The translations under genes and the position numbers were made by a program. The notes under the pieces were generated by a model, which did no database searches, was not told the DNA's origin, and saw nothing but the letters and a program-made list of their open reading frames with translations. Of a stretch of 62,087 nucleotides of DNA, positions 57,706 to 61,831 are shown one piece after another. The stretch comes from Candidatus Yanofskybacteria bacterium (GTDB taxonomy: Bacteria; Patescibacteriota; Minisyncoccia; 2-02-FULL-40-12; GWA2-44-9). Positions within the stretch are counted from its first letter, which is position 1. Every line of letters starts with the position of its first letter. Location: contig JADZAY010000006.1 in the NCBI GenBank assembly GCA_020852375.1, positions 1 to 62,087 of the forward strand, written 5' to 3'.

Positions 57706-58572
57706 TTATGGATGAATACGGGCCGCCATGAACAGGCGGCATTTTTGTTCGACCACATCCCGTACCGCGTCGTCCGCCGACTGCAGGTAGCGATAGGGAG
57801 TCGTTTGGCCGGGATGCTCGGCCAGCTCCTCTTTAAGCTCGCGTTGATACGCCACACGAAGCTCGGTATTGAAATGCACATTCGTGATGCCCGTTCGGAT
57901 GGCGCTCACGACCTGTTCATCGGGAAGGCCCGATGCTCCGTGAAGCACGAGGTAGGCATCCGGAATCGCGGCGGCAACCCTGGCGAGGTGCTCGATGTCG
58001 AGAACTTCTTCCTGCTTGGTCACAATGCCATGGATATTCCCGAACACGGGAGCAAATCGCTCGACGCCGGTTCGTCGGATAAAATCGGCGGCCTGCTCCG
58101 GCTTTGTAAAATCGTCCCTGCCGATGACGACCTCCGTCTGCACTTCGGACCGCCCCTTCAGATAGCCGACCTCCGCCTCTACCATGAACGACCCGCGCTT
58201 AGTCTGGGCGTATTGCCAGACGCGCTGGGTCTCGATGACGTTTACCTCGTATGCCAAGCGAGAACCGTCGAAGAGCACCGAGTCATACCCCGCATCGATC
58301 GCCTCCTTGCAGGCATCGAAAGATGCAAAGTGGTCGGCATTGAGAAATACGGGGAATTCCGCAGACCGGCGCGCCGCCTGAACGAGCGCCACCGCTTCCG
58401 CCATACCGAGAAACTCCGCCTCCCCAGGGCTCGTCCCCACCAAAACACACGGCGCACCAGCTCGCATCGCGCCTTCAACGATCGCGCGCAAAACATCGGC
58501 GGTCGCGAAGTTGAAATGCCCGATCGCCCAGCCCTCCGCTTTCGCCTGCGCAAAATACTCTCGCAGTTCCAT
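57706..58572 (-). CDS. fba: Class II fructose-bisphosphate aldolase
   Basis: AIGHFN, NADH, FDGS, VEAEVG, GNIHG, LVLHGASG, HFNTELR. Confidence 0.93.
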   Translation of the reverse strand: MELREYFAQAKAEGWAIGHFNFATADVLRAIVEGAMRAGAPCVLVGTSPGEAEFLGMAEAVALVQAARRSAEFPVFLNADHFASFDACKEAIDAGYDSVLFDGSRLAYEVNVIETQRVWQYAQTKRGSFMVEAEVGYLKGRSEVQTEVVIGRDDFTKPEQAADFIRRTGVERFAPVFGNIHGIVTKQEEVLDIEHLARVAAAIPDAYLVLHGASGLPDEQVVSAIRTGITNVHFNTELRVAYQRELKEELAEHPGQTTPYRYLQSADDAVRDVVEQKCRLFMAARIHP

Positions 58573-59864
58573 CAGGTCGTATGGTTATATCCGTTCCCTA
58601 GCACGATAAAGCCGTCAACGATATGCTCCTCGATCAGCTCCTGCATGCGCTCCCGACCCATATATTCCACGAAGATCTTGTTCCACAGCGCCTCCTGCTG
58701 GTGGTAGAGATATTCCGCGCGAGGTCCGTCGCCATGTACGAGCGACATCAGAAGATCGATAAGGTCAAAACTCAGCAACTGCTGCTGGCCGCTTACAGGA
58801 TCGACGAATTCTTCCCCGATGAAATCGAGGCCCGTCCACCACCCGAGATCCAGCCCGCCGTGATCGCGCCCGAGAATGCGAGACAAACGGCTCAGGTCGT
58901 CCTCAGCCCGCCACCAATGGTCGGCCTCCGGATTCACATGCGGCTCGCCCAGACGCGGGTCGTGGATATCCTTCTTCGCAAGGTATTGCTGCACGACGCG
59001 CCACGCCACTCGCCCATCGTTCGGCGCTGGCGCACTCGACACATCCCCCCGAAGAAGACTCTTGAAGATCGTCCCGAAATCCGGATGCCCGAGGTAGCGC
59101 CGGAACAAACTCGCGTAGAAGGGAACCTCGTGCAGATAGTGCAGCATGAGGGTGAACAAGCGCAACGTCGCACCCTTCCCCTCAATACTGGCTGGGATCA
59201 CAAAAATGATGCCCAGCTCCTTCAGGTGGGAAACGTTGTGATACTTCCTCCGCAGAAATTTTTCGGCGACCGAAAGCCATTTCGTATCAAGCACCAAGTG
59301 ATCAACCTCGCGTTCCTCGAAGTCGTCGGCCGTCAGGCCGGAATATGCCTTCTCGAAAAACTCGTGCATCCATTCATCGGTCTGCGTGAACCGTAATGAC
59401 ACCATGACCGACGCGAAACCCTCCCGGTCCACTAGGTCGCGAACGGTCGCATATCCAAAGTGCTCGAGCAGATTGGCGGGCGGATACTGCTCCAACAGCT
59501 CCACCATCCGCTCGCGCTTGATGAACAATCCTGGCGGCGGGACGAACACTTTCGCCACCGTCGTACAGAGCTTCGCGCACGCTTCTTCTGGTTTCGTGAG
59601 ATCGGGGCGATCGAGTAGATCGTACAAATGACCATCGAGGTGCCCCAGCCGCTCCACCAGCGCCGCATACACCGCGGCAAGACCGTCCCGCCGTGTCACC
59701 CCAAGACCGGCAAGCGTACGGTCCACAGTGATGTCGATCTGCCGAGCAATATCTTCGAACACACCCTCCTGCCCGGTGATCGCGTTCATCTTCTGCTCAA
59801 TGGCAAAAAGCGCCTTCGGATCGGCGCGCATGAGACGCGCAAGCTTGTTGAACGGGTCGCGCAT
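58572..59864 (-). CDS. Conserved hypothetical protein coupled to fba
   Basis: Its stop overlaps the fba start. His/Glu-rich motifs YHNVSHLKE, HYLHE, HVNPEADH, YHQQE. Confidence 0.85.
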   Translation of the reverse strand: MRDPFNKLARLMRADPKALFAIEQKMNAITGQEGVFEDIARQIDITVDRTLAGLGVTRRDGLAAVYAALVERLGHLDGHLYDLLDRPDLTKPEEACAKLCTTVAKVFVPPPGLFIKRERMVELLEQYPPANLLEHFGYATVRDLVDREGFASVMVSLRFTQTDEWMHEFFEKAYSGLTADDFEEREVDHLVLDTKWLSVAEKFLRRKYHNVSHLKELGIIFVIPASIEGKGATLRLFTLMLHYLHEVPFYASLFRRYLGHPDFGTIFKSLLRGDVSSAPAPNDGRVAWRVVQQYLAKKDIHDPRLGEPHVNPEADHWWRAEDDLSRLSRILGRDHGGLDLGWWTGLDFIGEEFVDPVSGQQQLLSFDLIDLLMSLVHGDGPRAEYLYHQQEALWNKIFVEYMGRERMQELIEEHIVDGFIVLGNGYNHTT

Positions 59865-59931
59865 GGTTTCCTTCAGTATACCCCGCCTGGAGCCGCGGCG
59901 GATGTGCATAAAATGGCCATTTTTGGGGGTA

Positions 59932-59960
59932 TTGACAAAATGGTTCAGAAATGCTATCAT
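59932..59960 (+). promoter_or_regulatory. Strong sigma70 promoter P1
   Basis: TTGACA-17-TATCAT with an extended TG. Confidence 0.8.
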
Positions 59961-59966
59961 ACTTCT

Positions 59967-60402
59967 GCCACGCTCGGGCCAGGCTCCTGGTGAGCCCGTT
60001 GGCTAGAGGACGGCGTGGGTAGCAGTGTTTCGATCCGAGGTATAAAAGTGCCTCGTAAGAAGAACCTGATACGAACGCGCGGTGCATTCCGTTAGTACCT
60101 ACCAGCGCTCTCCCACACATGGGAGCAGCCCGCCATCGATCGTCGACTGGAATAGCTGAGGATGGGAGTTTTAAGCAAACGTCCTCCTGTCACTCGGCCG
60201 CGACCTCCTCGTCGAAACGGAGATGGAACACCGGGCACAATCATGACTCCTTTCTAAAGGAGCCCGAAAGGGACGAAGACGTCATGCCGGTTTCAACCGC
60301 AGACGCGTAAGCGGCACCGGAGAACAGCGATCCCGAGTAGAACGACGCCACAAACGAGGCGGGAATACTATTCCCAAACCATGTGGCGTCTTTCATTTTT
60401 TG
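59967..60402 (+). ncRNA. Candidate large structured ncRNA 1
   Basis: Bounded by P1 and a GACGCCACA/TGTGGCGTC stem plus T-rich tail. Many hairpins and no credible ORF. Confidence 0.55.
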
Positions 60403-60418
60403 AACATACTCGAGGCAC

Positions 60419-60447
60419 TTGACGCAAAATAAGCATCGTGGTATGAT
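60419..60447 (+). promoter_or_regulatory. Strong sigma70 promoter P2
   Basis: TTGACG-17-TATGAT with an extended TG. Confidence 0.8.
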
Positions 60448-60453
60448 GCCTCT

Positions 60454-60829
60454 GTGGAGGTTCGGTCCGGCGCTGCTAGACCTGGCGCGTCCTTCCGGGG
60501 GATGTCTTAGCCCATCCTACCGACAAAAGGACCGTGCGTCGCCGGCGCGACGCATCCGCCGTCGGCAGCACCCGGGGCCGAACCTCCACACCCGCTCTTT
60601 TTCTATAACCTTCACCTCTCCGGCCGAAACCGGCGCAGAGGGCACAGCGCCTCTGCACTCCCGCGAGGACTGGAGCCGCGGTTGCCGACCGCGATCACTG
60701 AAGCGTTCCTCTCGGGGCCTGCTCGTACGGAGATCCGTACGGGGCATGTTCGCCTCCTGCCCGCCCGATCCTGGGCGGGGTGCCGTGAGACCGTTGCGAA
60801 AAGACAGGATATCGCAACGGTCTTTTTTT
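60454..60829 (+). ncRNA. Candidate large structured ncRNA 2
   Basis: 15-bp closing stem starts at the predicted +1. A 12-bp terminator plus T7 lies at 60788-60829. Confidence 0.6.
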
Positions 60830-60838
60830 GTGCCGCAT

Positions 60839-61831
60839 TCACCGCGCACCCACGCTGGTACGCACCACAGGGACCAACGGCCACGAGCCAATATCCCCGA
60901 CTCGGAGAATGCCCGCTTTCGCCCCGTACTGCATGACGACCGAGGTGGCGTTCGCGGTGCCGAACTGGATCGCCTTTTCGATGCTTCCGGAACGAATGAA
61001 CTCAGCGAGAAAACCGGCATGGAACGCGTCCCCCGCACCGGTGCGCTCGATCGTAGATCCCTCCGGGGTTCCGGCAGTATACCGCATGCGCCCATCGGAA
61101 ACAGCAACACCGCGCGGCCCGTTCGTCATACTGCAGATCCCTCCGATCGCATCATCAAGCGCAGCAAAGATAGCGTCGGGATCATCGAACGACTTTCCGG
61201 TGAGCTGAGCCGCTTCTTCCTGGTTCATCCCAACGATATCAAATGATTTCCAGAGCGGCGCAAGCACTGCAAGACCATGTGCCAGCTCTCCTGGCCCTGG
61301 GTTGGTCGCTACATGTGCTCCGGTCCGCTGTGCGAACGCCGCGATACGCTCAAGCATCTCGATACTTCCGCCGAGCGAGTTCACATACACCCACTTCGCA
61401 GAAAGCCGGTCCCACGGGATGTGCTCCGGATGCCAGTGAAGCCCCTCGCCCTTGTACGACAGGATCGTGCGTTCACCCCCGTCGCCAACCAGGATCGACG
61501 AGTACGCGGTAATATCGTCATCGCCCGCCATCATGTATTTCCCGTCGACCCGCTCGCGCCGAAGCTCATCGAGTATCGCGGCGCCGTTCGGGTCTTTTCC
61601 GATCACACCGATGCACGCAGCACGATACCCCTGACGGGCAAACGTGACCGCCGCATTCGTGCCACCGCCCCCTGATGCGAACACGATCTTCTTGACCGGC
61701 ACCTTCGAGCCAAACGGGACGCACAATCCTTTTCGCGTAGGAGATTGGTCGTCGTCGAGCACGCGGAACGCATCCGCGCTGAAAAAGACATCTTGGGTCG
61801 CCGACCCGATAGCGATAACGTCGTAGTTCAT
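60839..61831 (-). CDS. PfkB-family carbohydrate kinase
   Basis: IGSATQD, SGGGGTNAA, ERTGAGDAF. Confidence 0.93.
   Translation of the reverse strand: MNYDVIAIGSATQDVFFSADAFRVLDDDQSPTRKGLCVPFGSKVPVKKIVFASGGGGTNAAVTFARQGYRAACIGVIGKDPNGAAILDELRRERVDGKYMMAGDDDITAYSSILVGDGGERTILSYKGEGLHWHPEHIPWDRLSAKWVYVNSLGGSIEMLERIAAFAQRTGAHVATNPGPGELAHGLAVLAPLWKSFDIVGMNQEEAAQLTGKSFDDPDAIFAALDDAIGGICSMTNGPRGVAVSDGRMRYTAGTPEGSTIERTGAGDAFHAGFLAEFIRSGSIEKAIQFGTANATSVVMQYGAKAGILRVGDIGSWPLVPVVRTSVGAR

Follow-up and report, generated by a model that had tools for sequence, protein, structure and literature searches.

The window, a stretch of 62,087 nucleotides, is contig C6 of a Candidatus Yanofskybacteria genome (G000) that comprises 744 kb on 24 contigs with a G+C content of 59%. 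Genomes of the CPR/Patescibacteria, to which this bacterium (Paceibacteria) belongs, are tiny and gene-dense, at about 0.7 Mb. In the window, an ORF-poor gap of approximately 970 bp separates two genes of the minus strand. One encodes a 430-aa protein whose family is unassigned (58572-59864) and is coupled to a class II fba gene on the same strand (57706-58572). The other encodes a pfkB-family sugar kinase (60839-61831). The plus strand of the gap contains two sigma-70 extended -10 promoters, at 59932-59960 and 60419-60447, and each is followed by about 400 nt that are rich in helices and close with a hairpin and a T-run. The first of these units, RNA A, has the 430-aa gene as its divergent neighbour and the pfkB gene as its convergent neighbour. 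The second, RNA B, possesses the promoter TTGACG-17-TATGAT (60419-47) and a predicted plus-strand transcript of about 60454-60830 with a terminator at its end.

A -10 element of the 430-aa gene itself, TATACT (59875-80, minus strand), lies 10 nt upstream of its ATG. A TACAAT or TATACT hexamer is located 6-10 nt upstream of the ATG of this gene in all relatives. This places the RNA genes between two transcription units and not within an mRNA. RNA A occurs in a single copy in the genome, and no internal tandem or guide-array repeats were found in it. A mobile element was considered and rejected, as RNA A is single copy per genome and flanking repeats are absent.

The promoter of RNA A consists of a -35 element, TTGACA (59932-37), a 17-nt spacer with TG, and a -10 element, TATCAT (59955-60), and matches at 11 of 12 positions. 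Only two promoter-like sites are present in 59500-61000, compared with 0.4 +/- 0.6 in shuffles, and 28 extended -10 promoters of this type, including that of RNA A, were identified in the whole genome. The presumed transcript is a promoter-to-terminator unit of about 436 nt on the plus strand (59967-60402), with a predicted +1 at about 59967. It ends in a terminator domain (60344-60402) in which a 9-bp stem, GACGCCACA/TGTGGCGTC (60344-52/60382-90), encloses an inner hairpin, GGGAAT/ATTCCC (60361-66/60370-75), and is followed by TTTCATTTTTT. A simple terminator scan misses this end because the "loop" is 29 nt. The initial annotation of this DNA had proposed the TTGACA-17-TG-TATCAT promoter, a +1 at 59967, and a final stem with a T-rich run; the promoter, stem, and run were found where they had been placed, the last two as the sequences given above. 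Promoter hexamers, predicted start, and terminator are all conserved in the G003 orthologues described below.

Secondary structure and covariation of RNA A

RNA A folds with a minimum free energy (MFE) of -167.9 kcal/mol (z = -3.81), a value that 0 of 100 shuffles equalled. The opposite strand gave z = -1.50 against shuffles. Folding of the orthologue G003b gave z = -3.17, and the RNA of the intermediate homologue L101 folds only marginally better than shuffles (z = -1.61).

The 5' domain (59968-60018, plus strand, as are all elements that follow) contains three helices. P1, CCACGC/GCGTGG (59968-73/60013-18), is also kept in G003, and L101 has CACGCU/GGCGUG. By our reading, P1 in G003b carries a C-G to G-C swap that was mis-registered by MAFFT. 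P2, GGCC/GGCT (59977-80/60001-04), has a G.U pair that becomes A-U among orthologues, and the P3 hairpin, GGCT/AGCC (59982-85/59993-96), has two compensatory pairs. The 5' domain is followed by a variable region (60019-60127) of local hairpins, CCGAGG/CCTCG (60035-56), GTGC/GTAC (60082-98), and CTCCCA/TGGGAG (60110-15/60120-25). In G003 the last of these is kept as UUCCC-GAAAA-GGGAA, the 60082-98 hairpin is kept, and the 60035-56 hairpin is replaced. A loosely tRNA-like subdomain had been suggested at 60017-60104. ARAGORN and RF00005 do not recognize it, G003 keeps neither its ACCA nor its CGAGG hairpin, and no part of the RNA is less conserved than the one that holds it, so that this suggestion is not upheld.

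The M domain (60128-60236) is a long irregular hairpin composed of M1 (GCCCG/CGGGC), M2 (CCATC/GATGG), UCG/CGG, M3 (TCGAC/GTCGA), and M4 (GGA/TCC). Its tip is variable, and its unpaired GA, AA, and A are invariant. All four MFE folds draw the same shape for this domain. It is followed by a three-way junction (60242-60286) in which CATGA/TCATG closes H1, H2, and the single strand ACGAAGAC. H1 is the hairpin CTCCTTT/AAAGGAG (60247-62), and H2 is CCC-GAAA-GGG (60263-72), with a GAAA tetraloop. The junction is invariant across G000 and G003 except for one U.G pair in H2. The L101 counterpart of H1 is GACUCCC/GGGAGUC and that of G006 is GACUCCU/AGGAGUC; a U-A pair is exchanged for C-G. A second small junction (60287-60343), in which the helix CCGG/CCGG (60287-90/60317-20) holds the hairpin CCGC/GCGG (60297-300/60311-14), is invariant in the three orthologues, and the conserved strand AGAACAGCGAUCCCGAGUAGAAC follows the helix within these limits. 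Together, the approximately 100 nt of 60242-60343 hardly vary, even in the loops, whereas the 5' half is about 30% diverged.

In this part, RNA A contains AGCGA..CCCnAGUAG, which is what is left of an element, AGCGAACGGG-insert-CCCUAGUAG, that L101, G002, G007, L098, and L107 possess. The inner hairpin of the AGCGAA-CGGG..CCC-UAGUAG element is missing from the RNA in the window, and the conserved single strand AGCGAUCCCGAGUAG remains. The element could represent a loop-E/S-turn-like signature, with AGUA opposite GAA.

The local helices listed in the initial annotation, CTCCCA/TGGGAG among them, are all present at the positions given there, with some adjustment to how they fit together. Its first two helices both exist but both use GGG 59976-78. 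The CATGAC/GTCATG junction helix (60242-47/60281-86), which encloses CTCCTTT/AAAGGAG and CCC-GAAA-GGG, was likewise confirmed, but it shares C60247 with H1. Its long-range pairing of GCTCGGG (59972-78) with CCCGAGT (60332-38) is present and is part of the MFE fold, but conservation does not favour it. A G-to-A change in G003b produces an A.C mismatch in this helix and an A-U pair in the competing local P2.

Conservation was explored by BLAST among 60 relatives, and RNA A was found only in the same-genus MAG G003, where it occurs twice (contigs C8 and C16) at 76-78% identity. Both copies have the order fba - 430-aa gene, RNA A, RNA B, pfkB. With identical synteny, they are two strains within one bin and not paralogues. 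In the three-sequence alignment, a consensus of 83 pairs is 95.6% paired and includes eight compensatory pairs, a result reached by 0 of 500 shuffles (slid controls gave 0-2), a control that is not a probability. RNAalifold independently produced 95 pairs, nine of them compensatory. One compensatory pair of G003b lies in the outer stem of the terminator domain and three lie in its inner hairpin. The alignment contains ten G.U cells that would be A.C mismatches on the opposite strand, and the plus strand is therefore fixed. When L101 was added, the 22 pairs of the M domain were 97.7% paired over four sequences, with seven changed on both sides, such as CCAUC/GAUGG versus CCGGU/ACCGG; again 0 of 500 shuffles reached the result, and slid controls gave 0-1. 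Reliable alignment is limited to the three close orthologues and this one intermediate; these sequences are few and related, and the covariation is therefore narrowly based. The initial annotation had made its case for an RNA depend partly on covarying homologues, and orthologues with compensatory changes were indeed found.

Known RNA families and coding potential

The window was compared with the 4227 models of Rfam 15 twice, once with the gathering scores as cut-off and once with E<=10; for homologues the limit was E<=1. The first comparison identified six tRNAs and nothing else in the window, and no family in RNA A, with OLE, GOLLD, ROOL, raiA, and HEARO included in the search. At E<=10, the only match within RNA A was a chance match to mir-7558 (17.7 bits against a threshold of 80), and at E<=1 nothing was found inside the RNAs of eight homologous loci. 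This is the Rfam comparison that the initial annotation had recommended. RNase P RNA is recognized by P4 and conserved CR regions and exists as one essential copy per genome. Its models (RF00010/RF00011) had no match in 59850-60900 even at E<=10, and the rnpB of this genome spans C16:26575-27003, where the match extends over the full length of the model (92.2 bits, E = 2.7e-29). Neither ARAGORN nor Rfam found at the locus a tmRNA, whose hallmark is a tRNA-like acceptor/T-arm domain with a tag reading frame, and ssrA was located by ARAGORN at C9:80354-80706 with the tag GYSNANYAFA*. The search for both genes elsewhere in the genome, which had also been proposed, thus placed them on C16 and C9. 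Group I and group II introns are marked by flanking exons and by a conserved core for catalysis, P3-P9 or domain V. Their models gave no Rfam match at E<=10, and the RNA A unit interrupts no gene. The earlier observation that RNase P, tmRNA, group I, and group II motifs are not recognizable is in agreement with these searches.

SRP RNA can be recognized by helix 8 with a GNRA loop, conserved internal loops, and the cognate Ffh. SRP RNA models (RF00169, RF01854) had no match in the region or in the whole genome at E<=1, and the small SRP model found nothing in 37 genomes of the order. No SRP54-type GTPase gene was found in the genome, so neither Ffh nor FtsY is encoded. Absence of ffh and ffs from Parcubacteria has been described (PMC4508563). 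Since there is no SRP system in this genome, RNA A is not a hidden SRP RNA. With rnpB and the tmRNA gene on other contigs and SRP absent, RNA A is not a diverged universal RNA. The 6S model (RF00013) matched neither at the locus nor in the genome, but it is insensitive and detected 6S RNA in only 5 of 14 control genomes. Thus, the proposal of a highly diverged known class is largely excluded, and only a weak 6S- or Ms1-type possibility is left.

It was also considered that RNA A encodes one or more small proteins, since ORFs of 31-107 codons occur on both strands. Substitutions among the orthologues are spread evenly over codon positions (25/23/28, 38/38/42, and 29/26/32), with no sign of codon periodicity. 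Most indels have lengths that cannot be divided by 3, among them 1, 2, 5, 8, 13, and 25 nt. The four small ORFs have no Pfam match and are not conserved in G003. Coding by RNA A is effectively refuted by these results, which bear out the earlier statement that no credible ORF is present.

RNA A has the features that would be expected of an independent ncRNA gene, namely a predicted promoter and terminator, no coding signal, and compensatory structure. The earlier description of an uncatalogued large bacterial ncRNA fits these data well, as RNA A has no Rfam match and shares its promoter, terminator, and helices with its orthologues, compensatory changes included. In a full-text literature search, no paper describing structured ncRNAs of the Yanofskybacteria lineage was found. 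An enrichment of GGA motifs of the CsrB type was rejected; the approximately eight GGA motifs in RNA A equal the expectation from composition.

Distribution and modular evolution at the locus

Of the 62 family genomes, 56 carry the 430-aa gene, and what lies in the adjoining gap differs between members of the genus. Through synteny, an intermediate homologue was found in L101, a metagenome lineage, where a promoter-to-terminator RNA of 537 nt (L101:1344-1880) adjoins P0014, a homologue of the 430-aa protein with 69% identity. Model R1, which was built without L101, matches it with 48 bits (E = 1e-12). A BLAST chain connects G000/G003 to L101 (E = 6e-7), L101 to G007 (1e-4), and G007 to L098 (2.5e-16) and G002 (5e-7). 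The RNAs that it joins to RNA A are more diverged and differ in length (340-540 nt). Anchors shared along the whole chain are a 5' CACGCU, a hairpin followed by AGCGAA-CGGG, 8-120 nt, and CCC-UAGUAG, and a branched terminator domain. Outside such short anchors, a MAFFT alignment of all RNAs of the genus is unreliable.

Promoter-to-terminator RNAs of about 340-680 nt are located upstream of RNA B at the G002, G005, G007, G010, L098, L107, and L109 sites. A TTGAC(A/T)-17-TGcTAT... layout precedes every homologous RNA. Promoter and terminator are kept in the homologous loci that were read (both in G003, and in G002, G005, G007, G010, L098, L101, and L107), and the flanks diverge. At the G006 site, a B1-like hairpin and an A-like H1-H2 module are fused to each other. 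G005, G010, and G006 are not linked by BLAST, and their homology is therefore uncertain. RNA A is dispensable at the locus in some members of the genus: G004 has no gap and instead a tight rpe-pfkB-430aa-fba block, G008 has a short hairpin RNA only (parts of RNA B), and G009 has RNA B only. RNA B is conserved beside RNA A in G003, and no element of the locus is kept more widely across the genus than B1, the first hairpin of RNA B.

The range of the sequence found in the window is narrow. Model R1 gave credible matches only in G000 and G003 among 62 family and 401 class genomes. One weak match, in G185 (21 bits), resembles coding sequence, is expected by chance, and was discarded. Model R2, which covers the M domain, matched only G000, G003, and L101/L102 among the 62 family genomes and 26 further loci, so the M-domain form belongs to 3-4 lineages only. 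Exact-pattern scans for the H1-H2 motif found only G003 and G006 among genome contigs, with 0 matches in JGI metagenome contigs and 0 in IMG/VR viral contigs. The AGCGAACGGG..CCCTAGTAG motif had two matches in viral contigs, one of them amid phage tRNA genes. These showed no further similarity and no Rfam family; their count is, by our estimate, about as chance predicts.

The RNA A family appears to be fast-evolving and modular, with a single genus as its range and a single intergenic "RNA slot", bounded by the 430-aa gene and pfkB, as its site. The locus illustrates how such RNAs can evolve through module exchange and resizing at one fixed site.

Interpretation and comparison with known systems

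RNA A would, on balance, be a stand-alone gene for a stable, highly folded ncRNA of an uncatalogued family. In the proposed scheme, the strong sigma-70 extended -10 promoter would drive RNA A and an intrinsic terminator on a branched hairpin would end the transcript. The predicted architecture from 5' to 3' is P1-P3, the variable region, the M domain, the GAAA three-way junction, the second junction, AGCGAUCCCGAGUAG, and the terminator domain, and the gene of RNA B, which has the wider distribution, would lie downstream of it. The best-conserved parts are whole modules with invariant loops, bulged A/G, and GNRA loops, and there is no conserved complementary target. For this reason our best guess, made tentatively, is that RNA A acts in trans as a folded particle, in protein binding or as a scaffold, and not through long antisense pairing. 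A gene-dense genome of about 0.7 Mb that keeps nearly 1 kb of promoter-driven and structured non-coding DNA between core genes of sugar metabolism implies a selected RNA function.

One alternative is that RNA A regulates by base pairing in the manner of RNAIII, RsaE, or an anti-Shine-Dalgarno RNA, with C/U-rich stretches that would pair with ribosome-binding sites. In a variant, GGAG stretches would titrate 30S subunits and hairpins would serve as switches. H1 contains CUCCUUUCUA, a 10-mer identical to the 16S 3' end of the genome, GGAUCACCUCCUUUCUA; ACCUCCU is found in the 3' strand of the M domain, and RNA B of the relatives carries UCACCUCCUU. However, both C/U-rich stretches of RNA A are buried in helices, opposite AAAGGAG and GGA(GG), and the 16S-like 10-mer is lost in L101 (CUCCCCGAUA) and G006 (CUCCUCGACA). 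The sites at which the 16S tail is best predicted to pair change from one orthologue to the next, with no signal above shuffles. Conservation gives no support to a mimic of the 16S tail, and the 10-mer is paired within H1. The energy of an A-B duplex equals that of shuffles (-244 vs -240 +/- 10), and the genome contains no long complementary target. Taken jointly, the two forms of this reading are unlikely. A diverged housekeeping class, chiefly a 6S- or Ms1-like RNA that binds RNA polymerase, fits the strong promoter and the stable-looking RNA, as for 6S and Ms1, and no 6S RNA is detectable in the genome with the insensitive model noted above. Against this, RNA A is multi-branched and not a rod with a central bubble, it has 436 nt and thus over twice the size of 6S, and its lack in several genus members is unexpected for a housekeeping RNA. 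With RNase P, tmRNA, and SRP excluded, a housekeeping role is very unlikely.

The near invariance of 60242-60343 could also indicate a catalytic or ligand-sensing RNA whose active or binding site is built from the 3' junctions. RNAs with a tertiary fold typically have GNRA loops, bulged purines, and multi-way junctions, all of which are present in RNA A. But L101 and the relatives of the G002 type have a different 3' arrangement, which would be surprising in a catalytic core. Models of known ribozymes and riboswitches do not match RNA A or the homologous loci, and no associated gene hints at a substrate. A ribozyme or sensor is distinctly improbable on these grounds. It is also conceivable that the region has no function at the RNA level and is an insulator or antisense transcription unit separating two operons, a decaying remnant, or a structure of the minus strand. 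Presence does vary within the genus, and the site falls within the tight block of G004. Yet only the plus strand accounts for the compensatory changes and the G.U pairs, the minus strand folds no better than shuffles, and promoter and terminator have stayed conserved while the sequence diverged by about 30%. The 430-aa gene, with a -10 element of its own, also speaks against this explanation, and the chance that it is correct is slim indeed.

Our verdict, drawn from comparative sequence data, is that RNA A can be regarded as a genuine, uncatalogued, genus-restricted, modular structured ncRNA. A bolder reading of the preferred stand-alone RNA would be that RNA A, probably with RNA B, forms the RNA core of a novel particle of the Yanofskybacteria lineage, either an RNP or self-assembling. 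This is speculative and unlikely as judged at present. If it were true, the M domain and the junction modules, swapped and resized at a dedicated "RNA slot", would point to a new functional class and not to a small regulator. RNA A adds a well-delimited family and a testable secondary-structure model to the orphan structured RNAs of uncultured CPR; its narrow range and the lack of a functional handle limit the immediate impact.

RNA A can be compared with several known systems. 6S RNA forms a rod of about 180 nt that has a closing stem and, at its centre, a large bubble, and none is annotated or detectable in the Yanofskybacteria lineage. For 6S and the mycobacterial Ms1, an abundant stable RNA from a consensus promoter is expected, and the same is predicted for RNA A. 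In contrast to 6S, RNA A is branched, has twice the size, is dispensable in some congeners, and has no model match. Staphylococcus aureus RNAIII and the C-rich RsaE/RoxS resemble RNA A as large (about 500 nt) RNAs with multiple hairpins, their own strong promoter and terminator, and C/U-rich stretches of the anti-SD type. RNA A differs in that its C/U-rich stretches are in stems and not in loops and are unconserved in the family, and in that it has no embedded ORF or identified target.

A further likeness is to the raiA motif RNA, OLE, ROOL, GOLLD, and HEARO. Like RNA A, these are stand-alone genes of several hundred nt with many helices. They also share multi-way junctions, GNRA loops, recognition by comparative sequence analysis, a fixed gene neighbourhood, and a function that was unknown at discovery. 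RNA A does not match their Rfam models, and its range, one genus, is far narrower. Its evolution is much faster and modular, and it has no association with prophages or tRNAs and no partner gene. Thus, RNA A is a new family of a known general kind, the orphan structured bacterial ncRNAs, with an unusually narrow range and modular evolution.

RNA units between pfkB and the 430-aa gene

RNA A, the predicted structured RNA of the window, is directly followed by a second promoter-to-terminator RNA, RNA B (window 60419-60830, + strand). The first part of RNA B, B1 (about 60454-60601, + strand), is a long hairpin that begins at the +1 and has CCACACCCGCUCUUUUU at its end. This is the element that is kept most widely at the locus, being found in the same-genus genomes G002 and G005-G010 and in the extracted loci L098, L100, and L101. 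The second part, B2, contains UCACCUCCUU in G003, G005, G009, and G010, and this motif resembles the 16S 3' tail.

Depending on the species, the gap between pfkB and the gene for the 430-aa protein holds from zero to four promoter-driven units without ORFs (G004 L048, G008 L046, G009 L047, G006 L044, G010 L054, and L109). This stretch between the two genes acts like an "RNA slot" of variable content. In the G003 MAG, the whole block of fba, 430-aa gene, RNA A, RNA B, and pfkB occurs twice, on contigs C8 and C16 (L006 and L007). The two copies are diverged, both showing about 78% identity in the RNA and 88% protein identity to G000, the genome of the window. The presence of two strains in one bin best explains these copies.

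An element consisting of AAGCGAACGGG, a hairpin, and CCCUAGUAG was also found in two IMG/VR viral contigs (L096:550-581, - strand, and L097:12833-12881, + strand). Both sites lie in ORF-poor stretches with no Rfam family, and the neighbours of one site are phage tRNA genes. These viral matches may be due to chance.

Promoters and further candidate RNA genes

A -10-like hexamer, TACAAT or TATACT, is located upstream of the 430-aa gene (window 59865-59880, - strand) and is conserved at the equivalent place in L042, L043, L045, L101, and L107. Because the ATG is only 6-10 nt downstream of this hexamer, a leaderless or near-leaderless mRNA is suggested for the 430-aa/fba pair.

Over 55 nt, the promoter of RNA A together with the first 12 bases of the predicted transcript resembles (78%) a promoter in G004 (L008:2920-3016) that belongs to the gene for a 188-aa protein. 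The 5' UTR motif of that gene, CCUUGAAAACCAAG, recurs in G000 at C9:376 (- strand). A further set of consensus extended -10 promoters was identified in G000 at C5:101(+), C5:106062(-), C19:591(+), C19:82086(-), C20:7307(-), and C3:44334(+). Downstream of each, the sequence is rich in G+C and the first 70 nt contain no obvious SD or ATG, so that additional ncRNA genes may lie behind these six promoters.

Universal RNAs of G000

The RNase P RNA of G000 (C16:26575-27003, - strand) scores 92.2 bits. This is below the Rfam gathering score of 100 bits for RF00010, and standard annotation would therefore overlook the gene. Neither SRP RNA (RF00169, RF01854) nor an SRP54-type GTPase (Ffh/FtsY) was detectable in G000, which is rated 100% complete, and the small SRP RNA model also had no match in 36 relatives of the order. 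This agrees with the loss of SRP already published for Parcubacteria (PMC4508563).
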